A DNA stretch of 22,293 nt from the NCBI GenBank assembly GCA_031431875.1, contig JANPEF010000098.1, positions 1 through 22,293 on the forward strand, written 5' to 3'. The notes under the pieces are model-generated. The model had not been told where the DNA came from. It was given only the letters and a program-made list of their open reading frames with translations, and made no database searches. Origin of the DNA: Candidatus Eiseniibacteriota bacterium. GTDB lineage: Bacteria > Eisenbacteria > RBG-16-71-46 > DASYSL01. The position numbers and the translations under genes are program-made. Numbering within the stretch: the stretch's first letter is position 1; each line of letters opens with the position of its first letter. Of this stretch, positions 808 to 22,293 are shown one piece after another.

Positions 808-1262
808 CCGCCGAACCCACCAACGCCGAGATCGAGGCCATCGTCCGCGCCATGCGCGTCATCGCCGTGCTCGGCATGAAGGACGAGTCGCGCGCCGGCG
901 AGCCCGGGCTCGAGATCCCGCGCATGCTGGTCGAGCAAGGGTTCGAGGTGATCCCGGTCAATCCCACCATCGCCAGCGCGCTGGGCCGCCCGGCCTATCC
1001 GCGCCTGTCCGACGTGCCGGTGGCGTTCGACCTGCTCGATGTGTTCCGCCGCGCGGACCGCATTCCGCAGATCGCCGACGAGGTGCTCGCCCTCGCGCCC
1101 GACCGAAGACCGCGAGTCGTCTGGCTGCAGAGCGGGATTCGGCACGACGTGGCGGCGTCTCGGTTACGCGCGGCGGGAATCACGGTAGTGCAGGACGCGT
1201 GTCTCGGAGTGCTGGCGGCGCGGTACCTGCCACGACCGCCGGCAAGCCCGGGCACAGCCTAG
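804..1262 (+). CDS. CoA-binding protein (YccU / CoA_binding_2 family)
   Basis: ATG 804 overlaps the glpK stop (ATGA). Motifs [46 protein letters not shown]. Confidence 0.9.
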
Positions 1263-2134
1263 GCCCCGATCCGGTTCGTCCCCAGCACGTGCCGGTCGAG
1301 CCAGCGTGCAAGGTCGGCGAGCACGCGATTGCGGTCCAGCTCGTTGAGCGGTTCGTGGAACATGCCGGGATAGATCCGCGTCTCACTGCCGGGCACGGTT
1401 GCCAGACGCATGAACTTCTGCGCCGCGTCGACGCTCGCGATCGGATCGGTTGCGCCGTGCAGGAGCAGGACCGGCGCCTCGAGGATCGCGTCCTGCCCGC
1501 TCTCGACTCCCGCGCGCAGGCGGGCCTGGGCGGCGCGCATCGCGGTGAAATAGCGCGCCGTCATGACGCGCACCACGGCGGGGTCGGCGTCGTAGGCGGC
1601 GACGATCGTCTCGTCGTGCGACATCTCGTGGCCGCGCAGCCCGGTCGCCTGCGCCAGCCGCGGCAGGATCCACGACACCGCGTTGGCCAGCGCGACCTTG
1701 AACGGCGGCAGCACCTTCGACGCGGCGAAGAACGGCGCGACCAGCACGAGACCATGGAAGATGCCGCGGTGCGCCGGGAGCCACTCGGCGGCCAGCAGGC
1801 CGCCCATGCTCGCCCCGAGCAACGCGCGCCGGGCGGGCAGGCGACGCTCGCTCTCGAGCACGCCGACCACCGTGGTGAGATCGTCGTGGAGCGCCTGCCA
1901 CGAGGGCGTGTGCCCGCGCGGCCCGGTCGACTTCCCGTGGCCGCGCGCCTCGATCACGAAACTGGAGTAGCCGCGCGAGGCGAGCTCGGTCTGCAGGCGC
2001 GCGTAGCGCCCGGCGTGCTCGGCGAAACCGGGGACGATCACGACGCCGCCGCGCGGATCGGCGACGGGATGACCGACGACGTGCAGGCGCACGCCGTTCG
2101 CCGGGACCGTCATCTCGAATGGGGTGTTCGCCAT
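1259..2134 (-). CDS. Alpha/beta hydrolase, lysophospholipase / monoglyceride lipase-like
   Basis: PGFAEHAGRY, RGHGKSTGPRGH, nucleophile elbow GASMGG, LLLHGATDPI, YPGMFHEPLNE. Start taken at ATG 2134 (MANTP), just downstream of the SDR stop. Confidence 0.9.
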   Translation of the reverse strand: MANTPFEMTVPANGVRLHVVGHPVADPRGGVVIVPGFAEHAGRYARLQTELASRGYSSFVIEARGHGKSTGPRGHTPSWQALHDDLTTVVGVLESERRLPARRALLGASMGGLLAAEWLPAHRGIFHGLVLVAPFFAASKVLPPFKVALANAVSWILPRLAQATGLRGHEMSHDETIVAAYDADPAVVRVMTARYFTAMRAAQARLRAGVESGQDAILEAPVLLLHGATDPIASVDAAQKFMRLATVPGSETRIYPGMFHEPLNELDRNRVLADLARWLDRHVLGTNRIGA

Positions 2135-2150
2135 GGCGCGGGAAAGACCG

Positions 2151-2882
2151 TCAGCCGCGCTTCGGGGGATGCAGGGGCCGCAGGTGGACCTGCGACACGA
2201 GCGCATTCGGCGAGGCCGTGACGATCGCCAGCGCCGCGTGCGCGACATCGTCGACGGTGAGGCGGCCCGCAGGCTCGCGGCCGCCGGCGAAGTCGGTGGC
2301 GGTCGAGCCGGGGCAGATCGCGGCCACGCGAATGCCGAAGTGGCGCAGCTCGAGCATGCACGCCTCGCTGAAGCCCATGAGGCCGAACTTGGTCGCGTTG
2401 TAGCCCGACAGGTTCGGGTTGGCGACGAGGCCGGCGACCGATGCGATGTTGAGGATCGTGCCCGAGCCCTGGCGCTTCATCGCCGGAACGACCGCGCGCG
2501 TGCACAGGAACGGCCCGCGCAGGTTGACGCCGAGCATCTCGTCGAACTGCTCGATCGTCATTGCGTCGACCGGGCCGAAGTGGCCCAGCCCGGCGTTGTT
2601 CACCAGGATGTCGAGGCGGCCGAATGCGTCGAGCGTCCCCTGGACCATGCCCTCGACCGAGCGATCGTCGCGCACGTCGGCGGGCACGATGATGGCGCGC
2701 CGGCCGAGCGCCTCGATCTTCTTCGCCAGGTCCTCGAGGTCGGGCACCGTGCGCGCGGCGAGCGCCACGTCGGCGCCGGCGCGGGCGAGCGCCAGCGCGA
2801 CGCCGCGGCCGATGCCGCGCGACGCGCCGGTGACCAGCGCGGTCTGGCGGGCGAGTGGATGCGCCGCGCCGGGGGCGGACAT
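2151..2882 (-). CDS. Classical short-chain dehydrogenase/reductase
   Basis: TGASRGIG, DILVNNAG, NIASVAG, YNATK, ICPG. ATG 2882 is 1 nt after the upstream stop. Confidence 0.93.
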   Translation of the reverse strand: MSAPGAAHPLARQTALVTGASRGIGRGVALALARAGADVALAARTVPDLEDLAKKIEALGRRAIIVPADVRDDRSVEGMVQGTLDAFGRLDILVNNAGLGHFGPVDAMTIEQFDEMLGVNLRGPFLCTRAVVPAMKRQGSGTILNIASVAGLVANPNLSGYNATKFGLMGFSEACMLELRHFGIRVAAICPGSTATDFAGGREPAGRLTVDDVAHAALAIVTASPNALVSQVHLRPLHPPKRG

Positions 2883-2883
2883 C

Positions 2884-4287
2884 TCAGCGCTCCTCGTCGT
2901 CGTCGCCGTCGCGCCAGCGCGTGGCGGCCTCGGCGGCGGCTTCGTCCTCGACGTCGCCTTTGTGGGAGACGGGCGCCGGAGCGGTCTCGCCCACCAGCTC
3001 GGCATCCTCGGGCAGCGTGAAGGCCAGTCGCCTCGAGTCGAGATCGACCTTGCTGACGATGGCGTCGACCTCCTGGTCGAGCCGGTAGCGCTCGCTCGGG
3101 TGATGACCCCACGGCGTCGAGAAGATGTTCGAGATGTGGAGCAGGCCGAAGATGCCGGGCTCGAGCTCGATGAAGACGCCGTACTCCTTGACGCCGCTCA
3201 CCCGACCGTGGACGGCGCTGCCCACGTCGTACTTGGAGGCGGCGTGCAACCACGGGTCGTCGGTGAGCTGCTTCAGGCCGACGGAAACGCGGCCGTTGCT
3301 CTCCTCGACCTCGAGCACCTGCACCCGGAGCTTCTGGTTGAGCGTGACGATCTGGCCCGGGTGCCGCACGTGCTGCCACGCCATCTGGCTGACATGCAGC
3401 AGCGCATCGACGCCGCCCAGGTCGAGGAACGCGCCGAACTCGGTGATCGACTTGACCGTGCCCTCGACGACGTCGCCGGGGACCCACGTCCGGTTGCTCC
3501 ACACCTGCGGGTCGCCCCGTTCGGCTCGATTGCGCTCGAGCGCGGCCATGCGCTGCGCCAGCTTGCCGCGCGCCCACGGCGCGTCGGGCGCAGCGGCGCC
3601 GAAGGCGGGTTGGGCGTCGTCGTCGCGCATCGCGCCCCCGCGCGTGCTGCGGGGCAGCGCGCCCTCGCTGCGCGGCCAGCCTCCGCGCTCGCCGCGGTCG
3701 CCGTCGCGCCGTTCGCTGCGGTCGGCCCGCTCGGCTCGCTCGATCCGCTCGTGTCGCGAGGCGGGGCCGCCGGCGGCGTCCATGCCGTGGCCCCCGTCGA
3801 TACGCTCGAGACCGGGGATCTCGAGCGGGTCGAAATTCCCGCCCGATGCCGAAATGAGGTCGTAGGAGACCGAGCCCGGCACGCCCGAGATGATCACTTC
3901 CTTGCCAAAACGATTGCGGGCCATGGTCACGACGCGCAGGAAGTCGCGGTCGCCCGTCATCAGGAGGACGGTCGGGATGGCGGCACGATCGAGCATCGTC
4001 TCGATGATGTCGCTCAGCATGTCCATGTCGGCGCCGGACTTCTTGCGGTCCCCGACCTGGTGTGCCTGCACGTTGACCGCGGTGATGCCCGACACCTGGA
4101 GATCGCGCAGGACGTCCGAGGGGAAGTCCTCGAAGTCGGCGTAGGCGCGCGCGATGTTCACGAGGCCGTATTTCCGGGCGGTTTCGATGAGCAACGAAGC
4201 CCGAGGTTCGACCCCGTAGGCGTTCAGTGTTCCGAAGCGGATGTTCTCGAAATCGATGAAGAGCGCCACTTCCTTACGTGGTTCCAC
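2884..4287 (-). CDS. NYN (LabA/DUF88, PIN-fold) putative ribonuclease fused to two S1 RNA-binding domains
   Basis: N-terminal ALFIDFEN, RAYAD, KKSGADMDM, LLMTGDRDF (NYN acidic motifs). C-terminal GTVKSITEFGAFLDLGGVDALLHVSQMAW...VSVGLKQLTDDPW...EYGVFIELEPGIFGLLHIS (two S1 repeats). GTG start with GGGAG at 4298-4302. Confidence 0.9.
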   Translation of the reverse strand: MEPRKEVALFIDFENIRFGTLNAYGVEPRASLLIETARKYGLVNIARAYADFEDFPSDVLRDLQVSGITAVNVQAHQVGDRKKSGADMDMLSDIIETMLDRAAIPTVLLMTGDRDFLRVVTMARNRFGKEVIISGVPGSVSYDLISASGGNFDPLEIPGLERIDGGHGMDAAGGPASRHERIERAERADRSERRDGDRGERGGWPRSEGALPRSTRGGAMRDDDAQPAFGAAAPDAPWARGKLAQRMAALERNRAERGDPQVWSNRTWVPGDVVEGTVKSITEFGAFLDLGGVDALLHVSQMAWQHVRHPGQIVTLNQKLRVQVLEVEESNGRVSVGLKQLTDDPWLHAASKYDVGSAVHGRVSGVKEYGVFIELEPGIFGLLHISNIFSTPWGHHPSERYRLDQEVDAIVSKVDLDSRRLAFTLPEDAELVGETAPAPVSHKGDVEDEAAAEAATRWRDGDDDEER

Positions 4288-4528
4288 AGTCCATTGTCTC
4301 CCTGGAGGCGACGAATCGCCTGGGTCCGGCCCTGGATCGCGATCGGGGGACTCACGAGGGGAACAATGCCAAGGATGCGAATCCCGCGGCCGGGTATCTG
4401 AATGTGCGTCGCGCGACGTCCTGTCCGCGACGCTGTTGCCGAGGTCCGTTCAGCCGGTTTCGTATTCCTTGAGCGCGCGCGAAAGCCCTTCGCCGTGGTT
4501 CGCCCGGGATGTTCGCGGCTCGCGAACG

Positions 4529-4534
4529 ATCATA
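4529..4534 (-). promoter_or_regulatory. Putative sigma70 -10 element (TATGAT) for the NYN-S1 operon
   Basis: Minus strand reads gtcggcTATGAT in an AT-richer patch of the 4288-4568 intergenic region. No good -35 seen. Confidence 0.45.
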
Positions 4535-4568
4535 GCCGACACAACGGCGAAAATCCTACGACAAACAT

Positions 4569-4928
4569 TTATCCGGAGGTCGCGGGAGGGTCCTGTTGAT
4601 CCGGGCGGAGCCCCAGGGCCCCCTGCACCTTGCCTTCGAGCGAGAGCGGTTCGCCCCGTCGCTCGTCGATGCGCAGGTGCGTGACCACGCGATCGGTCCC
4701 CGTGTGCAGGTCGAACGTGGCCGTGTGCAGCGCGCGAGCCAGTGCGAGCACGTCGTCGAGGGGACCCTCGACCAGCGTGCCCATGGCGGTGAGCTGGTGG
4801 GCGAGGCCGCTGGCCTTCACCAGCGGGAGGAGCGCGCGGATGAACTCGCGAATGGTGGCCTCCCCGGTGCCCAGCGGCGTGATGAAGATCTCGGCAACGA
4901 TGGGGCGGCGGGGATCGAACGCGTGCAC
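4569..4928 (-). CDS. MTH1187/YkoF-like (thiamine-binding family) protein
   Basis: IVAEIFITPLGTG, SGLAHQLTAMGTLVEGPLDDVL, RVVTHLRIDERR, SLEGKV. Start GTG 4928 is inferred. Confidence 0.85.
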   Translation of the reverse strand: MHAFDPRRPIVAEIFITPLGTGEATIREFIRALLPLVKASGLAHQLTAMGTLVEGPLDDVLALARALHTATFDLHTGTDRVVTHLRIDERRGEPLSLEGKVQGALGLRPDQQDPPATSG

Positions 4929-4939
4929 GGAAGTCGGCC

Positions 4940-5560
4940 TCAGGGGCGCGCGGCGGCGCCCGCGCTCGCACTTGCGCGGCGGTAGGCGTCCCAGCTCGTC
5001 GTCTTGTAGTGGCCGTCGCCGATGAAGCGCAGGACGCCGAGGAACTGGTCGGGCTTGACGAAGCCGGGTACCTGCGTGACCAGCGCGCCGTCGGCGGCGA
5101 AGAACAGGGTCGTCGGGTAGCCGGTGATGCGGAACGAGTCGGCGAACTGGCGGTGCGTGCTCTCGACCCCGCCGTAGTCGACACGGCTGTCGTCGTCCTC
5201 GGCGTCGACCCGGGCGGCGATGAACTTGCGCCCGACGAATTCGCGCACGGCCGGGTCGGCGTAGGTCGCCTTGTCCATCTTCCGGCACCAGCCGCACCAT
5301 CGGGTCTGGACGTCGACCAGGAGCGGCCGGCCCGTGCGCTTCGCCTCGGCCAGGCCCTCCTCGAGGTCGGTCCAGCGGATCTTCTCGACTCCGCTGTCAG
5401 CCGCCATGTCGGCCGCCGGAACGGCGGCCCCGCCTCCGGCACTGCCCCCCCGGATCACCTTCGGAGTCGGCCCTTCGCTCTGCGCGGACGCAGGATCGAC
5501 GACGAGAAGCCCGGCGAACAGCGCAAGCAGGACGAGCGGGGCACCCCGGGCGGAACGCAT
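4940..5560 (-). CDS. Secreted thioredoxin-fold protein (DUF255/SoxW-like)
   Basis: Signal peptide MRSARGAPLVLLALFAGLLVVDPASAQ; WCGWCRKM redox motif; cis-Pro loop ITGYPTTLF; VPGFVKPDQF. Confidence 0.88.
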   Translation of the reverse strand: MRSARGAPLVLLALFAGLLVVDPASAQSEGPTPKVIRGGSAGGGAAVPAADMAADSGVEKIRWTDLEEGLAEAKRTGRPLLVDVQTRWCGWCRKMDKATYADPAVREFVGRKFIAARVDAEDDDSRVDYGGVESTHRQFADSFRITGYPTTLFFAADGALVTQVPGFVKPDQFLGVLRFIGDGHYKTTSWDAYRRASASAGAAARP

Positions 5561-5566
5561 GGCGGG

Positions 5567-5575
5567 AGCGTAGCA
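5567..5575 (-). promoter_or_regulatory. Putative extended -10 promoter (TG-C-TACGCT) 6 nt before ATG 5560; probably leaderless
   Basis: Minus strand reads gtgcTACGCTcccgccATG, with no Shine-Dalgarno. Confidence 0.55.
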
Positions 5576-5592
5576 CGCGCTCGAAACGGGCC

Positions 5593-6450
5593 TCAACCGC
5601 GCCCCCGGACCGTGTGCTCGATCATGCCGGTGGGGTCGTTCGGGTCGAACACGACGGCGCACCAGCGCTTGTCGCCCTCGAACTGGCCGGGGTTCACCAC
5701 CCGGGTGCGCCCGATCGTGTCGTGGAAGCGTCCCGAGACCGTCGGGCTCTCGTGGATGTGGCCCGACAGCGACCACGGCGGCTGGTGTCGTTCGATGAAG
5801 TCGCGGAGCGCCCGCGAGCCCACGGGCGCGCCGCCATGGATACGATCGCAGGCCGTGTCGTAGGGCGGCGAGTGCACGACGAACACCGTTCGCGACGGAT
5901 CGGTACGCGCGCCCAGGTCGGCCAGCGCGTCGGCGATGGTCGCGCCGCGGGCGGCGGGGTCGAAGCGGAACTCCTCGAGACCCCCGGGGGTCGAGCGCAG
6001 GCCGTCGAGCGCCACGCCGGGCGGCGAATCGGCGGTGTCGAAGCGCTCCCAGTCCTTCATCGAGAACGGGGTGATCGGCACCCACGACAGGCCGGCCAGC
6101 GCCAGGCCGCCCTCGGCGGGGCCGAGTTCGTGGACGCGATCGTGGAGCACCGACCAGAGCGCGGGGTCGCCGGCCTCGAGTGCGTCGTGGTTCACGGCCC
6201 AGTCGTCGTTGCCCATGAGAATGAACAGGCGCACGCCCGGAGACGCGGCGCGAACGCGCTCGGCATAGGCGCGGAACGGCCCGGTCCAGAATGCGCGCTG
6301 CACGGCGGAACCTTCGAAGACCCGGGTGTGCGGGCCCAGGTCGCCGCCCAGGATCACGACGGAAGGCCGGTGCTCCGCCGCCGCGGCGACGAGCGCTTCG
6401 TAGAACGGAAGATGCCCGTGGAGGTCGGAGGTGAAGATCCAGCGTCCCAC
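5593..6450 (-). CDS. Calcineurin-like metallophosphoesterase
   Basis: SDLHG, GGDLG, GNDD, HSPPY, LSGHIHE, VVNPG motifs. Confidence 0.9.
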   Translation of the reverse strand: MGRWIFTSDLHGHLPFYEALVAAAAEHRPSVVILGGDLGPHTRVFEGSAVQRAFWTGPFRAYAERVRAASPGVRLFILMGNDDWAVNHDALEAGDPALWSVLHDRVHELGPAEGGLALAGLSWVPITPFSMKDWERFDTADSPPGVALDGLRSTPGGLEEFRFDPAARGATIADALADLGARTDPSRTVFVVHSPPYDTACDRIHGGAPVGSRALRDFIERHQPPWSLSGHIHESPTVSGRFHDTIGRTRVVNPGQFEGDKRWCAVVFDPNDPTGMIEHTVRGRG

Positions 6451-6465
6451 GGGCAGGCGCCTCGC

Positions 6466-7299
6466 CTAGACGCGGACCACGATCGCCTCGCGGCGCTTGC
6501 TCAGCGACGGAAAGTCGATCGCCTTGAAGATCGTGATCCGGCCCGCGTAAGAGACCTTGACGACGTACGCGTCGCCGGACGTGCCTGCGGAGTCCCCGTA
6601 GGCGACGGCAAACAGGTACTTCCCGCCGCCCGAGGTCGTTCCTTCGCCGAGGATGTTCGGCGTACCGTACTGCTGCACGATCACCAGTGCGCCGTCGAGC
6701 GCCAGTCCGCTGGTCGCGTCCTCGACCTTGATGTCGTAGGTCGTCGAATCGGCGCCCGGGGTGGCCAGGTCGCGCCGCAGCTCGAACGAGATCGGCGGCC
6801 CGCTCTCCCCGGCCACCTGCATCCTGGCGAACAAGGCGTCGGCGGGAATCCCGACGGTCAGCTTCCGCGTGATGATGAGGTCCTTGATCGTGATCGTCTG
6901 CAGCGTGTCCCCCGACAACCCGACGTTGCACTCCTCGTCGGCCGTATAGCGGGCCAGCGGCGTGATCACGTACACGCGCGCCGTGTCGAGACCCTCGAGG
7001 CGCAGCTCGAGTCCGCCACGGGCCTCGCAACCGTTGTGGAACACGGTCTGCACCTTGACGCGCACGTCCATGACGACGGTGGTGAGCGTGTCCGTGGGTA
7101 TGCCGTTCACCTTGATCGTGTCGTTGCGCGTCGTGTATCTGGTCACGTCGTAGGCAATGCCGGGCACCGGCAGCGCGTTCTGGATGGTCCGCCCCTCCTC
7201 GCTGCAGCCCGCGAGCGCGGCGGCGGCGGCGGCGGCAAGGACCGGGGCGGCAAGGCGGACACGGGTGAAAACGCCGGGGAATCGTGCAGTCGGGGTCAT
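6466..7299 (-). CDS. Hypothetical lipoprotein, beta-rich, with a possible carboxypeptidase-regulatory-like C-terminal domain
   Basis: ATG 7299; basic N-terminus, Ala-rich h-region and lipobox LAGC; C-terminal IKVEDATSGLALDGALV...GTTSGGGKYLF. Confidence 0.75.
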   Translation of the reverse strand: MTPTARFPGVFTRVRLAAPVLAAAAAAALAGCSEEGRTIQNALPVPGIAYDVTRYTTRNDTIKVNGIPTDTLTTVVMDVRVKVQTVFHNGCEARGGLELRLEGLDTARVYVITPLARYTADEECNVGLSGDTLQTITIKDLIITRKLTVGIPADALFARMQVAGESGPPISFELRRDLATPGADSTTYDIKVEDATSGLALDGALVIVQQYGTPNILGEGTTSGGGKYLFAVAYGDSAGTSGDAYVVKVSYAGRITIFKAIDFPSLSKRREAIVVRV

Positions 7300-7305
7300 G
7301 GATCG

Positions 7306-7314
7306 ACGATAGCA
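7306..7314 (-). promoter_or_regulatory. Putative extended -10 promoter (TG-C-TATCGT) 6 nt before ATG 7299; probably leaderless
   Basis: Minus strand reads gtgcTATCGTcgatccATG, with no Shine-Dalgarno. Confidence 0.55.
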
Positions 7315-7343
7315 CACACCTCCGCGCCGGCAGGACCCCCGGC

Positions 7344-7373
7344 TTGACCCCCGGTCGGGAGAGCCGCCATACT
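7344..7373 (+). promoter_or_regulatory. Putative sigma70 promoter TTGACC-N18-CATACT
   Basis: -35 at 7344-7349 and -10 at 7368-7373; purine-rich RBS AGGAAGGAAGG before ATG 7438. Confidence 0.6.
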
Positions 7374-7437
7374 TTCGACGTCGACGCCCGCCGCCCCACT
7401 CGCCGTCCCCCGGACGGTTCCGTTCAGGAAGGAAGGC

Positions 7438-8661
7438 ATGAGCCCTCAGCGCAGCCCGTTCGTCGCCCTTGCGTCTCCGCTCCTCGCTGTCGCGCTCCTG
7501 GCCATCGCCCTCTTCGCTGCCGCGCCCACCGTCGCCGCCCAGTCGGCGACGACGCAGAACGCGTCCCGCTTCCGGAATCCCGGCTTCGAGGACGGCGGCC
7601 TGTTCAACCCGAGCGACTGGGACACCACGGTCGCCGGTGTGCCCACCGTCCTCTTCTACTGGGATCCGGACGTGACGCACGGCGGCACGCGATCGGCCAG
7701 CATCGTCAATGCCGGCGACGCGATCCCGGTCTGGCACAACTGGAACCAGATGCTGCCGCACGCCGGCGACCTGGTCGGGCGCGACCTCGAACTCACGGTC
7801 TGGGTTCGTTCGGCGCAGATGAGCGGCGGCCGCGGCTACGTGATGCTGCAGGCCTACCGCGACACGGTGATGAACAAGGCGCTCGACGAGGGCACCACCC
7901 GCGAGCAGGCGCGCGTGACGATGGGCTACAAGTACGCCGATGATCCGCAGCTCGAGACCGGCTGGGCGCGCCAGTACTTCTCGGCCGACGTCGACGAGTG
8001 GACGGCGAAGACGGTGCGTCTGCACGTGCCGCCGACCACCAATCTGGTGATCATCCGACTCGGTATCTTCGGCAGCGGGCAGGTGTGGTTCGATGACGCG
8101 CAGCTGGCGATCAAGCCGGCGGCGACGCAGGCGCTGCCACTGGGCAAGAACCTGCTGGCCAACCCCGGATTCGAGCGGCCGCTCGACGAGTGGGAGTTCT
8201 CGATGCCGCCCACGCCGCAGGCCGCCATCGCGCGCGACTCGTCGGTCGCCCACACGGGCCGCTTCTCGGCGAGGTACACCGCACCGGTCAAGGCGGCGTT
8301 CCAGACCTACATGAACACCTGCCAGGTGTGGAACGCGCGCAACCTGTCGGGCCGCCGCGTGCGCCTGTCGGGCTGGGGCAAGACCGAGAACCTGGTCGAC
8401 AGCGCCTACCTGAGCGTGTTCTCGACCGGGCTGTACGGCGTCGCCAGCTCGCTCGCCGGAGACGCGTTCACGGGCACGCGTGACTGGTCGTTCTACTCGG
8501 TCGAGTTCGACGTGCCGAAGGACACCTACACCGTCTGGGCCCGCGCCGGCGTGCAAGCGTCGCCGGGCAAGACGTGGTGGGATGACCTCAAGTTCGAGGT
8601 GCTCGGCGCCTCGCCCAAGCCCGCCGCCAAGCCCACCCCCAAGACTTCAACGGGGCGCTGA
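7438..8661 (+). CDS. Secreted protein with two CBM_4_9-like (galactose-binding fold) domains
   Basis: Signal peptide ending VAA-Q; two repeats, NPGFE..W..HGG/HTG..GR.(L/V).L..W..W....VP....G..W(F/W)DD; Pro/Lys-rich tail. Confidence 0.75.
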   Translation: MSPQRSPFVALASPLLAVALLAIALFAAAPTVAAQSATTQNASRFRNPGFEDGGLFNPSDWDTTVAGVPTVLFYWDPDVTHGGTRSASIVNAGDAIPVWHNWNQMLPHAGDLVGRDLELTVWVRSAQMSGGRGYVMLQAYRDTVMNKALDEGTTREQARVTMGYKYADDPQLETGWARQYFSADVDEWTAKTVRLHVPPTTNLVIIRLGIFGSGQVWFDDAQLAIKPAATQALPLGKNLLANPGFERPLDEWEFSMPPTPQAAIARDSSVAHTGRFSARYTAPVKAAFQTYMNTCQVWNARNLSGRRVRLSGWGKTENLVDSAYLSVFSTGLYGVASSLAGDAFTGTRDWSFYSVEFDVPKDTYTVWARAGVQASPGKTWWDDLKFEVLGASPKPAAKPTPKTSTGR

Positions 8662-11614: not shown

Positions 11615-12388
11615 GTGAAAGTCATCCTCCTTGCCGGCGGTCTGGGCACGCGCCTGGCCGAAGAAACCTCCGTGCGCCCCAAGCCCATGGTCGAGATCGG
11701 CGGCCAGCCGATCCTGTGGCACATCATGAAGGGCTATGCGCACCACGGCTTCTCCGAGTTCATCGTCGCGCTGGGCTATCGCGGCGACGTGATCAAGGAG
11801 TGGTTTCTCCGTCAGAACGAGCTGATGAACGACCTTACCGTGGACCTGTCGAAGGGTGTCACGACCGTGCACTCGTCGCGCCAGCCGGGCTGGCGCGTCC
11901 ACCTGGTCGACACCGGCGCCGAGACGATGACGGGCGGCCGCATCCGCCGCCTGCGCCAGTGGATCGGCGACGAGACGTTCATGGCGACGTATGGCGACGG
12001 CGTCGGGGACGTCGACCTGCCGGCGCTGCTGGCGTTCCACAAGAAACACGGCAAGCTGGCGACCGTCACCGGCGTCCATCCGCCGACGCGCTTCGGCCTG
12101 CTCGGCCTGACCGGCGACCAGGTGACGCACTTCGAGGAGAAGCCCGCCGGCGCCGAGGGCTGGGTCAACGGCGGCTTCTTCGTGTTCGAGCCCGGCGTGT
12201 TCGACGTCATCGAGGGCGACCACGAACCGCTCGAGCGCGGGCCGATGGAGCGCCTCACCCGCAGCGGCCAGCTCATGGCGTACCTGCACAAGGGTTTCTG
12301 GCAGCCCATGGACACGCTGCGCGAGAAGCAGGAGCTGGAGCGGTTGTGGGCAAGCGGCCGCGCGCCGTGGAAGGTCTGGGAGTCGTGA
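11615..12388 (+). CDS. rfbF: Glucose-1-phosphate cytidylyltransferase
   Basis: ILLAGGLGTRLAEET..RPKPMVEIG..PILWHIMK, VDTGAETMTGGRI, TYGDGV, VNGGFFV, HKGFWQPMDTLREK, APWKVW. Confidence 0.96.
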   Translation: MKVILLAGGLGTRLAEETSVRPKPMVEIGGQPILWHIMKGYAHHGFSEFIVALGYRGDVIKEWFLRQNELMNDLTVDLSKGVTTVHSSRQPGWRVHLVDTGAETMTGGRIRRLRQWIGDETFMATYGDGVGDVDLPALLAFHKKHGKLATVTGVHPPTRFGLLGLTGDQVTHFEEKPAGAEGWVNGGFFVFEPGVFDVIEGDHEPLERGPMERLTRSGQLMAYLHKGFWQPMDTLREKQELERLWASGRAPWKVWES

Positions 12389-13425
12389 AGGTCGTCGTCA
12401 CCGGCAACCTGGGTTATGTCGGCACCGTGCTCACGCCCCTGCTGGTCGCCCGCGGCCACGAGGTGCGCGGCCTCGACACGGGCTACTACGGCGACTGCAT
12501 TCTCGGGCCGGTCGACGAGACGAGCGTCGCGCAGCAGATCAACCGCGACCTGCGCGCCGTCGAGCGCGCCGACCTGGTCGGCGCCGACGCGATCGTCCAC
12601 CTGGGCGCGCTGTCGAACGACCCCATCGGCGAGCTCGACCCGAAGCTGACCGCCGACATCAACACGGGCGCCTCGATCCGCCTGGCCCAACTCGCCCGCG
12701 ACGCGGGCGTGCGCCGCTTCATCTTCGCCTCCTCGTGCAGCATCTACGGCGCGAGCGGCGGCCGGCAGCTCGACGAGGACTCGCCGATGAACCCGCTCAC
12801 CGCCTACGCGCGCTCCAAGGTCGACACCGAGGTCGCGCTGCGGGCCATGGCCGGCGACGGCTTCTCGCCCGTGTTCCTGCGCAACGGCACGGCGTACGGT
12901 TACTCGCCGCGCCTGCGCGTCGACATCGTGGTCAACAACCTGGTCGCCTGGGCGGTCACCACCGGCAAGGTCGCGCTGGCCAGCGACGGCCGAGCCTGGC
13001 GCCCGCTGGTCCACGTCGAGGACATGGGCCGGGCCATGATCGCGGCCCTCGAGGCCGACGCGCGCCGTGTCCACGGCGAGGCGTTCAACATTGGCCGTGA
13101 GGCCGACAACCGGCAGATCCGCGACGTCGCCAACGCCGTCGCCGCCGCCGTTCCCGGCAGCATCGTCACGTTCGCCGAGGGCGCGGTGTCCGACGCGCGT
13201 GACTACAACGTGAGTTTCGCCCGCGTGCGCGCGGCGCTGCCCGCGTTCAAGCCGCAGTGGTCCGTCGAGTCGGGCATCGTCCAGCTGCGCGACGCCTACC
13301 GGAAATTCGAGCTGAGCTACGAGCGATTCGACGGCCGCGAGTTCACCCGCCTGAAGCAACTTCTCCACCTGCGTCGCCTGGGGCGGCTCGACGAGGACCT
13401 GAGCTGGACGGGCCCCTCCGCCTGA
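12385..13425 (+). CDS. Extended SDR nucleotide-sugar epimerase/oxidoreductase (not a canonical RfbG)
   Basis: GTGA overlap with rfbF; TGNLGYVG, HLGALSNDP, ASSCSIYG, YARSK, LRNGTAYG.SPRLR.D, WRPLVHVED. Confidence 0.9.
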   Translation: MKVVVTGNLGYVGTVLTPLLVARGHEVRGLDTGYYGDCILGPVDETSVAQQINRDLRAVERADLVGADAIVHLGALSNDPIGELDPKLTADINTGASIRLAQLARDAGVRRFIFASSCSIYGASGGRQLDEDSPMNPLTAYARSKVDTEVALRAMAGDGFSPVFLRNGTAYGYSPRLRVDIVVNNLVAWAVTTGKVALASDGRAWRPLVHVEDMGRAMIAALEADARRVHGEAFNIGREADNRQIRDVANAVAAAVPGSIVTFAEGAVSDARDYNVSFARVRAALPAFKPQWSVESGIVQLRDAYRKFELSYERFDGREFTRLKQLLHLRRLGRLDEDLSWTGPSA

Positions 13426-13450
13426 AATTGTCCGACCCCGAGGACCTGCG

Positions 13451-13981
13451 ATGATCTTCACCGAGACTCCGCTCGCCGGCGCGTTCGTGATCGCGCTCGA
13501 GACCAAGGACGACGAGCGCGGCTTCTTCGCCCGCGCCTTCTGCCAGAACGAGCTCGCCGAGCACGGTCTCGAGACGACCGTGGCGCAGGCGAACCTGTCG
13601 TTCAATCACAAGCGGGGCACGCTGCGCGGGCTGCACATGCAGAATCCGCCGCACGGTGAGGACAAGCTGGTGCGCTGCATCACCGGCGCCATCTACGACG
13701 CGATCGTCGACCTGCGCCCCGGCTCGCCCACCTACCGACAGTGGTTCGGCGTCGAGCTGTCGGCGGCGAACCGGCTCATGCTCTACGTGCCCAAGGGCTT
13801 CGCCCACGGCTACCAGTCGCTGACCGACGGCAGCGAGGTCCTCTACATGGTCACGCAGTTCTACACGCCCGGCGCCGAGCGCGGCCTGCGCTGGAACGAC
13901 CCGGCCTTCGGGGTCGCCTGGCCGCTGCCGGATCCCATCCTCTCGGAGAAGGACGCCGCGGCCCCGGACTTCACGCCGTGA
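13451..13981 (+). CDS. rfbC: NDP-4-keto-sugar 3,5-epimerase (RmlC/RfbC cupin)
   Basis: DERGFFAR, GTLRGLH, KLVRC..GAIYD..VDLRPGSPT, LYVPKGFAHGYQSL, GLRWNDP, LSEKD. Confidence 0.93.
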   Translation: MIFTETPLAGAFVIALETKDDERGFFARAFCQNELAEHGLETTVAQANLSFNHKRGTLRGLHMQNPPHGEDKLVRCITGAIYDAIVDLRPGSPTYRQWFGVELSAANRLMLYVPKGFAHGYQSLTDGSEVLYMVTQFYTPGAERGLRWNDPAFGVAWPLPDPILSEKDAAAPDFTP

Positions 13982-14907
13982 AGGCGCTGGTCACTGGCGG
14001 CACCGGGTTCATCGGCTCGCAGGTCGTGCGGGCGCTGCTCGCCGCGGGGCACGACGTCCGCGTCGTCGCCCGCGACGGCGCCTCGCGCGCCAGGCTTGAC
14101 GACGTCGCGGGGCGTCTCGAGTGGGTGAGCGCGGACCTGTTCGCAGGCGCCGACGACGACGCGGCGGTGGCGAGGGCCGCGGAGCTCGCGCATGGCGTCG
14201 CTGTCTGCGTCCATGCGGCGTGGTACGCGGTGCCTGGCAAGTACCTTGAGGCGAGCGAGAACCTGGCGTGTGTCACAGGCTCGCTCGCGCTGCTGAGGGG
14301 GCTCTGCGTTGCGCGCGTTCCGCGCGCGATCTATATAGGCACTTGTTTCGAGTACGACTTCGACTTCGGCTGGCTCTCCGAGGACACGCCGACGCGCCCC
14401 GCCAGCCTGTACGCCGCGGCCAAGTGTGCGACCCGGCTCATGGGCGAGCCCCTGGCACAGGCCGGCGGCATCGAGTTCGCGTGGGTGCGGCCGTTCTACC
14501 AGTACGGGCCGCACGAGGATGCGCGGCGGCTCGTCCCCTACGTGATCGACACGCTGCTGGCGGGCAAGGAAGCGGGCGTGACGCGCGGGCTGCAGGTGCG
14601 CGACTTCCTGCACGTCGCCGACGTCGGCGCGGCCATCGCCGCGGTGGCGACCACGAAGGGGCTCACGGGTGCGGTCAACATCGGCTCCGGCCGGCCGGTG
14701 ACGGTGCGCGAGATCGTGGCCACGATCGCCGACGTGCTGGGCTGCCCGGAGAAGGTGAAGTTCGGCGCGCGGCCCGACAACCCGACCGATCCCCCGTTCA
14801 TCTGCGCCGACACGCGCCGCCTGGTCCAAGCGACCGGCTTCGCGCCGCACTTCGACCTGGCGACCGGCCTCGCCGACACGATCGCCTGGCGGCGCGCCCA
14901 CCCGTGA
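13978..14907 (+). CDS. NAD(P)-dependent nucleotide-sugar reductase/epimerase (extended SDR)
   Basis: GTGA overlap; TGGTGFIG, HAAW, GTCFEY, YAAAK, RPFYQYGPHED, QVRDFLHVAD, NIGSG. Confidence 0.9.
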   Translation: MKALVTGGTGFIGSQVVRALLAAGHDVRVVARDGASRARLDDVAGRLEWVSADLFAGADDDAAVARAAELAHGVAVCVHAAWYAVPGKYLEASENLACVTGSLALLRGLCVARVPRAIYIGTCFEYDFDFGWLSEDTPTRPASLYAAAKCATRLMGEPLAQAGGIEFAWVRPFYQYGPHEDARRLVPYVIDTLLAGKEAGVTRGLQVRDFLHVADVGAAIAAVATTKGLTGAVNIGSGRPVTVREIVATIADVLGCPEKVKFGARPDNPTDPPFICADTRRLVQATGFAPHFDLATGLADTIAWRRAHP

Positions 14908-15884
14908 TCACGGTCGGCATCCCGGTCTACAACCGGGCGTCGCTGGTCAAGATCGCCGTCGAGTCGGCGCTGCGCCAGCCGCAATCGGCTGACGAGCTCG
15001 AGATCCTGGTCGTCGACAACGCTTCGACCGACGGCACGTGGGAGGTGCTGAACGGCTACAGGGATCCGCGTCTGCGCGTGGTGCGCAACGACCGCAACCT
15101 GGGCCTGTTCGGCAACTTCAATCGCTGCCTGTTCCTCGCCCGCGGCGAATCCGTGCTCACGCTGTGCTCCGACGACAAGCTCAGCGACGGCTTCCTCGAG
15201 CCGGCGCGGCGGCTGCTCGAAGCGCGGCCCGACGTGGCGATCGTCAGTTCGCGCGGCCGTGCCACCGACGAGGTCAACGGCACGTCCTTCGCCCTGGGCA
15301 ACACGCTGCCGGCGGGTGTGTACGACCCGCAGGATGCGATCGTCGCCGCGCTGTGGGCCCTGGCGACGTACTTCCACAATCCATTCAACTATCCGTCGGG
15401 GCTGCTGGTGCGCACGGCGGTCGCGCAGGCGAAGGGCGGGATGGACGAGGTGCTGGGCTTCGCCGCGGACGTGAAGCTCTACCTGTCGATGCTCGAGGAC
15501 CACGGCCTCGCCATCCTCGATCGGCCGGGCTGCGAGGTGCTGGTCCACACGGGCGCGCAGGCGATCAAGTCGTTCGGCGATCCGCGCTGGGTGCGCGAGT
15601 TCGTCGCGCTGTTCGATCCGTACACTGCGCTACTCGCGGAACGCGGAGTCGACGAGTACGTCCGCTCCCACCTGGGTGGTTACCTGCTGGGGACCACCGT
15701 GCGTCGCCGCGTGCGCGGAGAACGCCTGATCGCCGAGAACTTCCACTCCGAGTTCCGTCGCCGCGGTTATCCGCTCCTGCCGTCGCTCGTCGCGCTCGCC
15801 GACAGCGTGCAGAAGCGCGCCCGCCTGCGCCGCGAGGGCCCGACGTCGAGCCCGGTGCCGGTGCGGCCGCAACCGCTGCCCTAG
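14904..15884 (+). CDS. Family 2 glycosyltransferase
   Basis: GTGA overlap; ITVGIPVYNR, ILVVDNASTDGT, RNDRNLGLFGNFNRCL..ARGE, CSDD. Confidence 0.92.
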   Translation: MITVGIPVYNRASLVKIAVESALRQPQSADELEILVVDNASTDGTWEVLNGYRDPRLRVVRNDRNLGLFGNFNRCLFLARGESVLTLCSDDKLSDGFLEPARRLLEARPDVAIVSSRGRATDEVNGTSFALGNTLPAGVYDPQDAIVAALWALATYFHNPFNYPSGLLVRTAVAQAKGGMDEVLGFAADVKLYLSMLEDHGLAILDRPGCEVLVHTGAQAIKSFGDPRWVREFVALFDPYTALLAERGVDEYVRSHLGGYLLGTTVRRRVRGERLIAENFHSEFRRRGYPLLPSLVALADSVQKRARLRREGPTSSPVPVRPQPLP

Positions 15885-17682: not shown

Positions 17683-20600
17683 CTACGGCAGCAGCACCAC
17701 GTCCGTGCGGAAGGTTCCGCCCGCGGTACGCGCCGACACGTAGTACTTGCCTGCGCCGACCGCGCGACCGGCGGCGTTCAGACCGTCCCAGCGCACGGAG
17801 TGCAGGCCGGCGTCGAGCGAGCCGTGCGCGAGCGTGCGCACGTGCGCGCCGCGCACGTCGTAGACGGTCACATCGACGTCGCCACGCGTCGGCAGTGCCA
17901 GCTCGATCGCCGCGCGACCATTGCGCGACGGGTTCGCGCCGGCCATGCGCAGGCCGTAGCTCCGCGGCGGGACCGGATCGGCCGCCACCAGGCTGCTGAC
18001 GACCAGCTCGACCGGCACGTCGACCGCGCCCTCGTCCGGATCGTTGCTCGACGCGTGCAGGTTGCCCTGGTATGTGCCGAGCTCGAGGTCCGTCGCGTCA
18101 TAGCCGACGGTCAGGTCCACCGAGCCCCCGGCCGGAACCGTCCCGGCCTGAGGGGTGATCGACAGCCACTCGGGCGTCCGCGTGAACTGCACCGCGAGGC
18201 CGTCGTGGGCGTAGTCGGTGTTGAAGGTGGTCATGAGGCCGATGTCGCGGGTCTCGTTCTGGATGCCGACCGTCGCCGAGCTCCTCGGCGGCGTCATCGC
18301 CAGGTACTGGTAAACGATCCTCCCGCTCGAATAGAGGATGGCCTGGTAGGTGTACGGCCCGCCCGCCGGTGCGCCCGACGTCCAGTGCGGCACCGCCACC
18401 CACGACACGATGAAGCGCGAGCCGTCGTTGTGCGTCCACACCGCACCCGTCGTGCGCAGGTCCATGTCGTCCCAGAACGGGGCGACGAGGCTCTTCGGCA
18501 AGCGGGCCCCGGAACTCGGAAGGGCCTGGTTCGAGTAGGCGCTGTCGGTCTCGGTGAACGACAGCCAGCCGTTGGTGCAGATGTTCACCGTGGTGTGGCT
18601 CGCGCCGTAGAAGGGGAAGGCGAAGCCGATCGGCACGCCGGTCTTCGTGCGATCGTCCGCCGCGAAACCGCCGAGTTGCGTTCCCACGCCGGTGATGTCG
18701 AGCCACGCGAATGCGGGGCCGCCCGGCTCGTCGCTGTCCTTCCACCTGTAGCCGAATGCGTCCGGACCGCCGGCGGCGTCGATCCCGGGGCGCGGGTCGA
18801 CTTCGCCCTTGCCCAGCGCGAGGGCCGCGTACGAGGTGAAGCCCTCGGCGAGCGCATCGACACTGGCGCCGATCGACCAGTTCAGGTCGCTGCCGCCGTC
18901 ATTGGACAGCGTCAACGTCTGCGCCGAGCTCGTGTTCGGTGCGAGGTAGGTGCCCATCGACGCCGCCGACAGCGCCTGGTCCGGCGCCGCCAGGCCCGAG
19001 CCCGTCAGCGCGATGACACGGAACTGCGTGTCGGGATCGTTGCTCTTGATGGTCAGCGTCGCCGGGTAGGCCTGCTCGGCCGCCGGGTTGAAGCTCACGT
19101 TGACGATCGCCGAGCCCAGCGGCGGAATCACCAGCTGGTTGGCATTCGGCGTGTACGCCGCATGGCTCGACGTGACCTCGTCGACGATCAGGGCGTCGGT
19201 GCCGGCGTTCTGGATCGAGACCTGGCGGATCTGCGGGAAGCCCAGGAACACGGGCCCGAAGTCGATCGGATCGGGGGTGGCCACGATGTCCGGCACGCCG
19301 ACGACGTGCAGCAGGCACTCGACGTCGTACTCGGGAACGAGCGGGTCGTTCGACGAGATGCGCACCACGCCCTCGTAGTCGCCGCCGTAGAGGCCGGCGG
19401 CGTTGAAGCCGACCGTCACGTCGGCGAACCCGCCCGCGGGCACCGTGCCCGCCAGCGGCGTCGCGGTGAGCCAACGCGCCGGCGGCGTGAAGCGCACCGC
19501 CTTGCCGTTGGCGATCCAGCTCGCGTTGTTGAAGACGACCTGCAGGCCGTCGTTCCGCAATGCGTTCTGGATGCCGATCGTGTGGCTGGCGTTGGTCGCG
19601 GTGGTGATCGACAGGTACTGGTAGACCAGGCGGCCATCCGGATACAGGTGGATCTGGAACGTGTTCGCCGCCGTCTCGTTGTACCGCGGCACGCCCTGGT
19701 ACTGCACGATGAGCTTCGTGCCGTCGTACTGGTAGTAGGCGTCTCCGAGCGTGCGGAAGTCGAGGTCGTCCCAGAACGGTGCGACCAGGTTCTCCGGCAC
19801 GCCGCTGCCGCTGTTGGGCAGCGTCGTGTTCGCGTAGGCGACTCCCGCCGCGGTGAATGACAGCCAGCCGTTGGTGCAGACGCGGAAGTTGCTGAATGCC
19901 GTGCCGTAGAACGGGAACGAGAAGCCGATCGGGAACGGGCCCAGGTTCTGGTCGTCGCCCGTGAACGGAATCGCGGTGCCCGTGCCCGAGATATCGACCC
20001 ACGCGAAGACGGGGCCGCCCGGTTCGGCGCTGTCCGCCCAGCGGTAGCCGAATGCGTCCGGCCCGCCGGCGTCCAGCGGCATGGGGCCGCCGACCACGTC
20101 GGCCGCGCCCTTCACCCCGAGGACGTTTTCCGCGTCGCCATCGACGTGGCGCGGCGTGCGCGCCTCGAAGCCCGGCGTGCCCGACAGCGCGACCGTGGAG
20201 AGGTCGTAGTCGAGCGCCGAGCCGCCGTGGTTCTCGATGCGCATCGTGCGCGAAACCGCACTGTTGGTGTTGAGCGTCTCCTCGAAGTTGCGCGGATCGA
20301 CCGAGAAGCCCGGTGCCACCACCGCCTCGCCCGTCGCGTGCAGCACGAGGCTCGGCGTGTCGGGGTCGTTGCTCGCGATCGTGACCGTGGCCGCCAGCAC
20401 TCCGGGGTTCGCGGGGCTCCAGGTCAGGGCGACGACCTGCGACGCGCCCGAGGCGAGCGAGAACACGCCGGGTCCGGCGGTCAGGCCGGTCGCGCCCGTG
20501 CCCGCGACGGTCATGCCGGTGACGTCGAGCTGGTCGGTTCCGTTGTTGCTCACCGTCACGTTGCGGCCGTACGAGCCGTCCTCGTACTGCGTGCCGTACG

Positions 20601-22293
20601 TCGAGGTGTCGGGCGTCGCCGTGATGTTCGGCGCACCGATCACCGTGAGCTGCGCCGTCGCGAGGACCGGCGAGTCGTCGGGATCATTCGACAGCACCTG
20701 TACGTTGCCGTCGTAGACCCCGCCGTTGAGCCCGGTGGCATCGAAGTGCACGGCCAGGTTCTGGCTCTGCCCGGCCGGGAGGCGGCCCGACGTCGGCGAG
20801 ACGCTCAGCCACTGCCGCAGCGGCACGAACTGCACGACCATCGCGTCGTGCACGTAGCTGGCGTTCGAGGCGACGGTCAAGCCCACCGTCTCGGTCGCGT
20901 TCTGGATGCCGATGGTGGCGCTGTTGGTCGGCGCGTTCATCGTCAGGTACTGGTAGCGGATCTCACCCGACGGGTAGACGAGGATCTGGTACGAGTACGG
21001 CCCGCCGCTCGCGTAGTGCGGCGCGGCAATCCACGACACGATGAAGCGCGTGCCGTCGTAGTGCGTCCACACGCGCGGCGTGGCGCCGAAGTCGTGGTCG
21101 TCCCAGAACGGGGCGAGCATGTTCTGCGCGCCGCCGGTCGTGGGTAGCGGTCCGTTGCTGTACGCCGTCACGTTATCGGTGAACGTCGCGAAGCCGTTGG
21201 TGCACACGCGCAGGCTCGAGAACGAGTTGCCGTAGAACGGGAAGGCGAAGCCGAGGTTGACCACGCCCGAGATCGCATCGTCCCCGGTGAGCGCCAGCTG
21301 CGTGCCCACGCCCGTGATGTCGACCCAGCCGAACGTGGGGCCGCCCGCTTCGTCACTGTCGACCCAGCGGTAGCCGAAGGCGTCGGGACCGCCGCGGCCC
21401 AGCATGCCGGGGCGCGGATCCTCCTGGCCCTTGGCGAGGAACATCTCGGCCTGGACGGGCACTTCCTCGACGGGAAGCCGGTTGCCGAGCTGCGAGAACA
21501 GCAGCTCCGGCGTCGGCGCCGTCCAGTCGAGGCGGCCCTGGCCGGGGTTCGAAATGGCGATGACCTGGTCCGACTGTGCGCCGGTGAGGAGAGTCTCGGT
21601 GAGCGACGTCGGGGCGAGCGCGATCTGCGGCTCGCCCAGCGTCGTGCCGGTCGCGACGTTCGAGATCGGCCCCTCGTTGCCGAACTCGTCGAGCGCCTTG
21701 AGCGCGAAGTAGTACTGCGTGCTGAACGTGAGGCCCGGAACCTCGAACGTCTCGGCCGCGCCGGCCGGCTGCGGGTCGGGGCCCTCGACCGCGTTCGCGG
21801 CGTCGAACGCCGTCTCATCGGGAATGGGATTCGTCGACCAGCGCACGTCGTAGCGCGAGGCCGTGCCCGTGCCCCCGTCGTCGCCGGTCGCGGTCCACGC
21901 CAGCTCCATCGTGGTCGAGCCGGGGTTCTGCGTCGCCAGGTCGGTGACCTGGTCCGGCGCCGTCGAGTCCGGATCGGCGATGGCGAGAAACACGTTGAGG
22001 CGCGCGCCGCTGACGCACTTGCCGAGCAACGACGGGATCGGGTCGGCCTTGAGGAGCAGCAGCTGCTTCACCTGCAGGTTCGAGGCGTTCGGGAAGCGGC
22101 CCCACACCATGGCGGCCGCGCCCGAGACGTGCGGCGTCGCCATCGACGTGCCCGACAGCAACTGGTAGCCGCCGCCCGGCTGGCACGAGAGGATCTCGTC
22201 GCCGGGGGCGCCGATGTCGACCGACGTCGCGCCAAAGCTCGAGAAGCTGGCGAGACCATCGTTGTGGTCGGTCGCGGCCACGCCGATGATGTA
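17683..22293 (-). CDS. Large secreted S8 (subtilisin-like) serine protease with FN3, triplicated beta modules, Ig-like domains and a C-terminal FlgD-Ig domain (5' truncated)
   Basis: Frame is open to the window edge (YIIGVAATD). ASFSSFG, VDIGAPG, catalytic-Ser motif [14 protein letters not shown]3 [10 protein letters not shown]...[11 protein letters not shown]-terminal NP..VYDVRG..VRTL..WDG.N..G..V..G.Y. Confidence 0.93.
18000..21450 (-). repeat. Three intragenic diverged tandem modules (~1.3 kb period) in the S8 protease
   Basis: [20 protein letters not shown] starts at ~21393, ~20067 and ~18771. Each copy has F.FPFYG, CTNG, APFWDD and SNDP-containing Ig-like segments. Confidence 0.9.

Follow-up and report, generated by a model that had tools for sequence, protein, structure and literature searches.

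The stretch of DNA examined here (the window) comprises 22,293 nucleotides. Its minus strand carries a gene for a 467-aa protein that begins with a LabA/DUF88-type NYN domain and continues, through a disordered linker and a helix, into a pair of S1 domains and an acidic tail. The gene, its parts, and its nearest neighbors are as follows.

2884..4287, minus strand: NYN-S1-S1 fusion gene, GTG start, 467 aa, open reading frame without internal stop
4298..4303, minus strand: Shine-Dalgarno-like AGGGAG read from the sequence, 10 nt upstream of the GTG of the fusion gene
3814..4287, minus strand: NYN (LabA/DUF88, PF01936) PIN-fold nuclease domain, aa 1-158, assigned by profile, alignment, model, and conservation
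4254-4252, 4137-4135, 4029-4027, and 3951-3949, minus strand: putative catalytic D12, D51, D87, and D113, respectively, accompanied by N15, T111, and D115
3580..3810, minus strand: disordered linker rich in R, P, A, E, and G, aa 160-236, with pLDDT <50 at 165-177 and 196-236
3514..3579, minus strand: conserved helix, aa 237-258, with invariant W238, partly aligning to the RpsA D2-D3 linker helix
3268..3477, minus strand: S1a, assigned to RpsA D3 by profiles and alignment, aa 271-340
3223..3267, minus strand: D3-D4 inter-domain linker with invariant W346
3013..3222, minus strand: S1b, with best likeness to RpsA D4, aa 356-425, with family-fixed F380 and N387
2887..2952, minus strand: acidic C-terminal tail, with a short predicted helix at aa 446-457
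2151..2882, minus strand: SDR oxidoreductase gene, 1 nt past the stop codon of the fusion gene
4450..4473, minus strand: relic 3' end of a response-regulator-like gene, 7 codons plus stop

A purine run like AGGGAG also precedes the fusion gene in the g1 and g4 genomes. The initial annotation had described an NYN domain with intact acidic motifs (IDFEN, GADMD, and TGDRDF) and two S1 repeats with the junction GLKQL..DPW, for which one PF01936 and two PF00575 matches were expected. The motifs and the junction are all present in the translation, and the Pfam search returned the expected domains: PF01936 at aa 7-148 (window 4269-3844; E 7.1e-21; 75.7 bits against a cut-off of 24.2) and PF00575 in two stretches (E 4.1e-32), with S1 domains at 3477-3274 and 3228-3016. 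Against NCBIfam, the best stretch was positions 184-342 of TIGR00717, the middle of RpsA, at 164.6 bits versus a full-length cut-off of 577 bits. The same Pfam search of the fusion protein gave no OST-HTH match after the nuclease at E<=0.01 and no match to the NYN_YacP profile PF05991, and the ESM Atlas yielded no usable match to it. In an AlphaFold model built from a 48-sequence alignment (mean pLDDT 72.8, pTM 0.39), the NYN domain and two OB folds were predicted with confidence and the linkers between them with low confidence; the predicted arrangement of the domains relative to one another is left unfixed by the model. The linker varies from 66 to 155 aa across homologues and occupies the position of a helical, probably winged-helix, domain in close relatives.

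Foldseek comparison of the modeled NYN domain identified 2qip (TM 0.83, E 2e-9) and MARF1 6fdl (TM 0.81), with TM values target-normalized, and 2qip was the only significant PDB sequence match of this domain. D12, D87, and D113 align with three aspartates of 2qip, whose residue numbers in the sequence file are presumably 3 higher than in the authors' numbering. D51 is predicted from the model to close strand 2, at a position equivalent to MARF1 D215. The 2qip aspartates were superposed by Chi and White on D13/D118/D143 of a B. fragilis NYN protein, which is described as a Mn-dependent, non-specific ssRNA endonuclease whose activity is abolished by D13A (bioRxiv 2024.04.08.588522). Among 59 homologues, acidic residues were conserved at D12 (58/58), D51 (58/58), D113 (59/59), and D115 (58/59), the last being stricter than in S1-less relatives, where 28 of the 77 proteins with a residue at this position have Asp. 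Position 87 was Asp in 45, Glu in 2, and Ala in 11 of 58 homologues; the D87A proteins retain D12, D51, and D113 and also carry Asp or Glu at 89 and 93. Nei-Gojobori omega values against the four nearest genomes were 0.02 to 0.07 for the NYN domain, 0.06 to 0.17 for the S1 pair, and 0.14 to 0.95 for the linker, as estimated from few, related, GC-rich genomes with synonymous sites near saturation in distant pairs. Judged by these comparisons, purifying selection acts on the putative catalytic D12/D51/D87/D113 and on the S1 RNA-binding residues described below, all of which are intact in the window protein.

The variation at D87 raises the alternative that the protein is an RNA-binding regulator or chaperone, in which the S1 pair works and the NYN domain, as a weak or dead nuclease, would serve as a scaffold or metal-binding module, similar to LabA, which is described from circadian phenotypes only (PMC5499597). 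Because the S1 pair is kept in the 11 of 58 homologues with Ala at this position, some members of the family may do without catalysis. In addition, the NYN domain of the D87A clade is more diverged from the window protein (66 to 70% identity) than is the S1 pair (77 to 83%), and the S1 pair is the best conserved part of the protein (mean column conservation 0.89 versus 0.85). A purely regulatory role nevertheless fits poorly with the complete acidic set in the window protein and 45/58 homologues, with the low omega of the NYN domain, and with the strictness of D115, and the remaining acidic residues of the D87A proteins might compensate for the loss. We therefore regard this reading as rather unlikely.

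To assign the S1 domains, D1-D6 profiles were built from 70 RpsA-like sequences using the E. coli S1 domain limits. The D3 profile scored best on S1a in 48/48 fusions (mean 100.7 bits versus 76.9 for the next), and the D4 profile scored best on S1b in 48/48, although narrowly (mean 65.1 bits versus 61.7 for D5 and 58.8 for D6), while the D1 and D2 profiles gave the lowest scores. The best Foldseek match of the model was 7a05, the NMR structure of V. vulnificus S1 D3-D4 (E 8.6e-21). By sequence, S1a clearly appears to derive from RpsA D3, and S1b likely derives from D4, an identity favored by its placement directly after D3 with the native linker. Hence, the D3-D4 origin suggested at the outset held well for D3 and, for D4, only narrowly over D5. 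The fusion protein aligns to residues 170-309 of E. coli S1, beginning in the D2-D3 linker helix, so that the captured piece would consist of helix, D3, linker, and D4.

Identity of the S1 pair is 75 to 85% within the family, 43% (43.2%) to D3-D4 of the RpsA of the same genome, and up to 48% to other RpsAs. In the S1 tree, the fusion S1 pairs formed one clade (SH-aLRT 99 to 100), with a stem of 2.6 changes per column in a quick tree. A clade uniting the S1 pair with the RpsAs of the phylum was not rejected (p-AU 0.686), in a tree of 41/80 rows without the two paralogues, P0061, and near-identical RpsAs, in which the S1 pair sits on a long branch. As the initial annotation had anticipated, an intact six-domain RpsA (624 aa, exceeding the TIGR00717 cut-off) is encoded elsewhere in the genome. 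The genome also encodes a second S1 paralogue with four S1 domains, which was not favored as the source (33.8% identity versus 43.2% to RpsA). Replacement of RpsA by the fusion in the D87A clade was considered since genome G066 showed no rpsA, and was rejected because such absences reflect contig breaks: in G066, a miaB-like gene, which lies closely 3' of rpsA in related genomes, begins 15 nt from the contig end, rpsA is cut by a contig end in G065, and it is split in two pieces in G064.

The RNA-binding face of RpsA is preserved in both domains. F284/F287/H298/R333 of S1a correspond to E. coli Y205/F208/H219/R254, each of which is required for RNA binding, with Ala mutants being weaker (PMC4176380), and Y369/F372/H384/R420 of S1b correspond to Y290/F293/H305/R341. 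In the S1a set, F284, H298, and R333 were each conserved in 59/59 and F287 in 58/59; conservation of the D4-equivalent set was 59/59, 59/59, 59/59, and 58/58. RpsA D3-D4 is described as the minimal mRNA-binding platform, gripping ∼14 nt of single-stranded RNA (PMC8287937), although its RNA binding is transient and non-specific and full unfolding activity requires D5 (PMC8287937, PMC6237739). Beyond this conserved face, 17 positions carry a residue that departs from the RpsA consensus and is nearly fixed (95% or more) within the family. Among the substitutions are R227 to H306 and E301 to F380, each found in 59/59 fusions; R227 and E301 are among three residues located by PRE beside bound RNA between D3 and D4 (PMC8287937). 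Such newly fixed residues in the cleft suggest that the fusion has its own substrate preference and does not simply copy that of RpsA.

Among the best 59 protein matches, 58 contained PF01936 and PF00575 in one chain, including the window's own; the other fusion proteins were 52 to 92% identical to the window protein, and the remaining match lacked the N terminus. An NYN-only match, P0081, looks like a frameshifted copy in our reading and was left out of all counts. Within the phylum, of which 206 genomes were searched, one Ca. Eisenbacteria family had the fusion in 9/10 genomes, against 0/196 in the rest; the single family genome without it (G069) is 81% complete. In the 8 of these genomes other than that of the window, it is likewise encoded in one reading frame. 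When 185,579 species genomes were scanned GTDB-wide by motif, the same 8 came back, 7 of them with Ca. Eisenbacteria or Eiseniibacteriota as title, plus 3 S1-only matches. An independently sequenced contig from a different study (run X6) covers 3016-3856, the entire linker included, without a gap and with 19 differences. One genome flagged as unpublished (G072) accounts for one of the 9/10, a single synteny locus, one of the omega comparisons, and one full rpsA match out of three, and the conclusions hold without it. The only possible trace of RNA is a 250-nt contig over 4229-4478 in one RNA run, which may be DNA.

The earlier concern that an assembly chimera might be signaled by absence of the fusion from relatives together with a break in the linker can thus be set aside. 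The low-complexity linker and the division of the genome into 166 contigs would have suited such an artefact, but both domains occur together in 58 clusters and in 9/10 family genomes, and an independent contig spans the linker. An origin as a pseudogene or defense-island gene is likewise contradicted by the purifying selection and by the conserved housekeeping synteny described below; PADLOC assigned 0 families to the fusion protein, the neighbors being housekeeping genes, and no copy was found in viral contigs. Taken together, an artefact or defense-island origin has a negligible probability.

Outside the family, searches that reach relatives of this NYN or S1 pair, and not distant NYN-OB fusions, gave no independent NYN-S1 fusion among the 150 best 50%-cluster NYN representatives other than the family's own P0057 (Pfam scan on 108, own S1 profiles on all 150), and none (0/41) among longer NYN proteins. 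Both domains are already labeled in the JGI automatic annotation, and therefore the architecture is present in databases though unnamed.

A close orthologue of the NYN half was found in 11 genomes of three other families (f12, 1/1; f13, 8/8; f14, 2/2), with identities of 62 to 68% and, in one case, 46%. In each of the 10 orthologues that were read, the NYN domain precedes a helical domain and a tail that varies and is often acidic, and none of the 10 contains an S1 domain. A profile of the relatives' C-terminal domain matched 56/150 NYN representatives and 0/59 fusions (best E 3.9). This domain had no match in Pfam or the PDB and Atlas matches under 0.8, and its single-sequence fold gave a pLDDT of 38; the "winged helix" label is tentatively suggested by a helix-helix-hairpin pattern and weak matches, seen in distant relatives only. 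Fusion NYN domains formed one clade in the NYN tree (SH-aLRT 99). From the trees and profiles we infer a single event, in the ancestor of the family that has the fusion, by which a duplicated rpsA segment (linker helix, D3, and D4) took the place of the ancestral helical C-terminal domain of an existing NYN gene. The copy would have diverged fast and then come under strong purifying selection, with rpsA itself kept. The fusion tail is weakly like that of the S1-less orthologues in family f14 (best i-E 0.0045 in a 59-sequence search with composition correction off), a likeness that would fit replacement inside the gene and is, alone, not significant.

In the two other families of the same order, the close orthologue was absent from 92/92 genomes (no match better than E 9.5e-13), so that loss or transfer is also part of the history. 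This absence bears on another alternative, namely, a nuclease devoted to the maturation or quality control of a single stable RNA (rRNA, tRNA, or tmRNA) that the re-fixed S1 cleft would recognize. The many invariant family-specific substitutions in the S1 pair would fit a fixed substrate, and bacterial NYN proteins have been implicated in tRNA/rRNA processing by gene context (PMC5499597). However, with the orthologue missing from 92 genomes of the same order, no essential maturation step would depend on the fusion, and no Rfam family was found in window 1000-8000. Such a role appears quite improbable.

The genomic neighborhood of the fusion (SDR, alpha/beta hydrolase, thiamine-binding protein, and thioredoxin) is a conserved housekeeping stretch. 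The SDR gene, probably co-transcribed with the fusion, lies 3' of it in 6/8 family loci compared (one cut by a contig end), and the alpha/beta hydrolase gene likewise follows in 6/8, with the thiamine-binding-protein gene upstream. In G071, G068, and G064, the response-regulator-like gene represented by the relic is still complete and lies upstream of the fusion. S1-less orthologues have different neighbors. No RNA-metabolism or translation genes were present in the fusion neighborhood, and the promoter/terminator scan returned 0 sites. Elsewhere, the genome encodes RNase E/G, RNase R/II, PNPase, a Smr-domain gene, a separate PF05991 Rae1-like gene (contig C7), and four further PF01936 genes; the genome is 98% complete, and searches for RNase Y and RNase J domains in it gave no match.

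These observations bear on the proposal of the initial annotation that the protein targets 5' leaders or acts in translation surveillance. In that reading, the S1 pair would bind the 5' leaders recognized by RpsA, or mRNA at stalled or idle ribosomes, for cutting by the NYN domain, as a one-chain counterpart of RegB plus S1 or of Rae1. The captured piece is indeed the mRNA-binding platform of RpsA with its RNA-binding residues intact, and related cases are known: T4 RegB is activated by S1 (PMC1702504), Rae1, a nuclease of the NYN group, cleaves upstream of ribosomes that have stalled (PMC12407103), and two cyanobacterial LabA/NYN proteins were co-purified with a ribosome-associated RRM protein (PMC12232666). 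That no RNase Y or RNase J domain was found in the genome also counts in favor of this reading. On the other hand, the fusion lacks the D1-D2 ribosome anchor and D5, the D3-D4 binding it would depend on is the non-specific, transient kind noted above (PMC8287937), and two of the three PRE-located RNA-adjacent positions are fixed to other residues (H306 and F380). The genome moreover has its own Rae1-like, Smr, RNase E/G, RNase R/II, and PNPase enzymes, and translation genes are missing from the neighborhood. Targeting of translation initiation is therefore considered unlikely, and the evidence of this analysis gives no support to 5'-leader targeting or translation surveillance; the observation made in the initial annotation is confirmed and its interpretation partly supported.

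A related and similarly doubtful idea is that of an "S1-decoy" nuclease, in which the neofunctionalized mRNA platform would compete with ribosomal S1 for defined single-stranded translation-initiation regions and hand them to the tethered NYN domain, so that mRNAs not yet on the 30S subunit are cut. If true, this would be a cellular one-chain version of the RegB-S1 mechanism, in which the D87A subclade would represent naturally occurring repressors that do not cut.

The reading we prefer, with a probability of roughly 0.6, is that of a metal-dependent single-strand endoribonuclease whose S1 pair captures the substrate, i.e., a chromosomal, family-specific LabA/DUF88-class NYN nuclease that carries its own module for RNA capture. 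The rigid S1 tandem would grip the ∼14 nt of single-stranded RNA by stacking of aromatic residues and by contacts between arginine and the backbone, and the flexible 66- to 155-aa linker would let the exposed, low-specificity NYN site, with Mn/Mg held by D12, D51, D87, and D113, cut single-stranded RNA nearby. Cleavage products would be finished by the general decay enzymes. Because D1-D2 are absent, the fusion would act off the ribosome. Two systems provide precedents, by analogy, for such a tethered mechanism: cleavage by MARF1 is lost when its RNA-binding LOTUS part is truncated (PMC6217404), and T4 RegB is stimulated in trans up to 100-fold by S1 domains 3-6 (PMC1702504). The smallest S1 piece active on RegB was D4-D5 rather than D3-D4 (PMC1702504), which counts against a direct analogy with the fused D3-D4.

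The closest known designs are the bacterial LabA/DUF88 proteins (NYN.COG1432, LK-nuclease) with OST-HTH/LOTUS domains (PMC2848206, PMC5499597), which have in common with the fusion an N-terminal PF01936 nuclease, a C-terminal RNA-binding module, the lack of an RNA-processing neighborhood, and a predicted role in stand-alone RNA degradation. The fusion differs in carrying a tandem S1 pair traceable to RpsA D3-D4, with its linker, instead of an OST-HTH or a single OB fold of the cold-shock type, as well as in being restricted to one family. The CRISPR-associated B. fragilis NYN (bioRxiv 2024.04.08.588522) has the three catalytic aspartates in common via 2qip, but it is a ∼25-kDa protein of a type III-B CRISPR system, whereas the fusion is multi-domain and has no defense context. 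MARF1 (NYN plus RRM plus LOTUS) is similar in its NYN fold (6fdl) and four-aspartate site, and its activity needs the appended RNA-binding domains, but it is eukaryotic, has other RNA-binding domains, and is recruited through the decapping complex. In T4 RegB (PMC1702504), the C-terminal modules of S1 act as an RNA-presenting cofactor of an endoribonuclease; that nuclease is an unrelated phage enzyme using host S1 in trans, minimally D4-D5, whereas the fusion has a diverged, private D3-D4 covalently attached. Relative to RpsA itself, the fusion retains the RNA-binding residues and the inter-domain Trp and lacks D1, D2, D5, and D6. Rae1/YacP (PF05991) is an mRNA endonuclease of NYN-group fold from a different Pfam family.

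In the literature searched, with subscription papers mostly outside its scope, no description of an NYN domain fused to RpsA-type S1 repeats was found, consistent with the initial view that the architecture was uncharacterized. That view needs qualification, since some bacterial DUF88-OST-HTH proteins with a further S1/cold-shock OB fold were noted in 2010 (PMC2848206); in the supplement of that paper, S1COLD was found in only one, eukaryotic, row. The combination of a LabA/DUF88 nuclease and a re-fixed RNA-binding module derived from RpsA is apparently undescribed, although the theme of NYN plus an RNA-binding domain was already known.

The reach of the finding is limited to one family of uncultured bacteria, and the design of a nuclease with an OB fold is familiar. 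LabA/DUF88 proteins, however, form one of the largest sets of RNases predicted in bacteria, for which hardly any substrates are known, and the NYN.COG1432 class was listed as of unknown function as of 2017 (PMC5499597). Since the substrate module here would come from a well-studied RNA-binding protein with mapped contacts, binding and cleavage should be separable by design, with the S1-less orthologues (62 to 68% identical in NYN) and the D87A subclade as natural controls. For the family itself, the fusion would be a clean case in which part of an essential ribosomal protein was duplicated, grafted onto a nuclease, and re-fixed.

Two short features lie upstream of, or across, the start of the gene that fuses the NYN nuclease domain to two S1 domains:

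4450-4473, minus strand: 3' relic of a response-regulator-like gene (last 7 codons and stop), from comparison with loci L037, L039, and L048
4276-4294, minus strand: out-of-frame ATG and 6-codon frame across the GTG start of the fusion, from the sequence

The response-regulator-like gene, presumably sigma54-type judging by its sequence, was found to be reduced to this remnant in the genome of the window (G000) and in three others of the family, G067, G070, and G072, and to be intact at the same place in G071, G068, and G064, with a length of ∼450 aa. The 3' end that was kept upstream of the fusion may hold a signal acting on that gene in cis. The out-of-frame ATG precedes the GTG by 7 nt, and its frame runs over the latter; this ATG is common to G067, G070, and G072, with TTG in its place in G071 and G068.

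Elsewhere in the window, three further regions were noted:

5593-6450, minus strand: metallophosphoesterase-like ORF, partial PADLOC match
11615-15884, plus strand: nucleotide-sugar-like cluster, read by eye
17683-22293, minus strand: ORF of 1536 aa that runs off the contig end, read by eye

The PADLOC model PDC-S10 matched the first in part (aa 168 to 253, E = 6.2e-9), probably as a generic fold match. By eye, the cluster comprises a nucleotidyltransferase, epimerase/dehydratases, an RmlC-like epimerase, and a glycosyltransferase. The long ORF, also by eye, seems to contain the last part of a subtilase-like domain, a module present three times, and a sorting-like domain at its C terminus.

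G000 also encodes a second RpsA-like protein, on contig C11:

L064:1360-4236, minus strand: RpsA-like protein of four domains and a long tail rich in Gly and Arg

Most genomes of the family contain matches scoring similarly to it. The gene 57 nt downstream is presumably an RNase D, and under that assumed name the neighbors form another S1-repeat/ribonuclease pairing in G000.

The orthologues from other families that lack S1 domains (L015 to L023 and L027) have, at the C terminus, a helical domain of ∼80 aa that lacks annotation; no Pfam or PDB match was found for it, and it is matched in 56/150 NYN representatives. Some of these orthologues have long Asp/Glu tails, and in many the acidic residue D115 is replaced by Arg or His. 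Within the fusion itself, the putative catalytic D87 is replaced by Ala in one subclade (L012 to L014, from G066, G064, and G065, plus 11 protein clusters), in which the linkers are also longer. This subclade is a candidate pseudo-nuclease branch.
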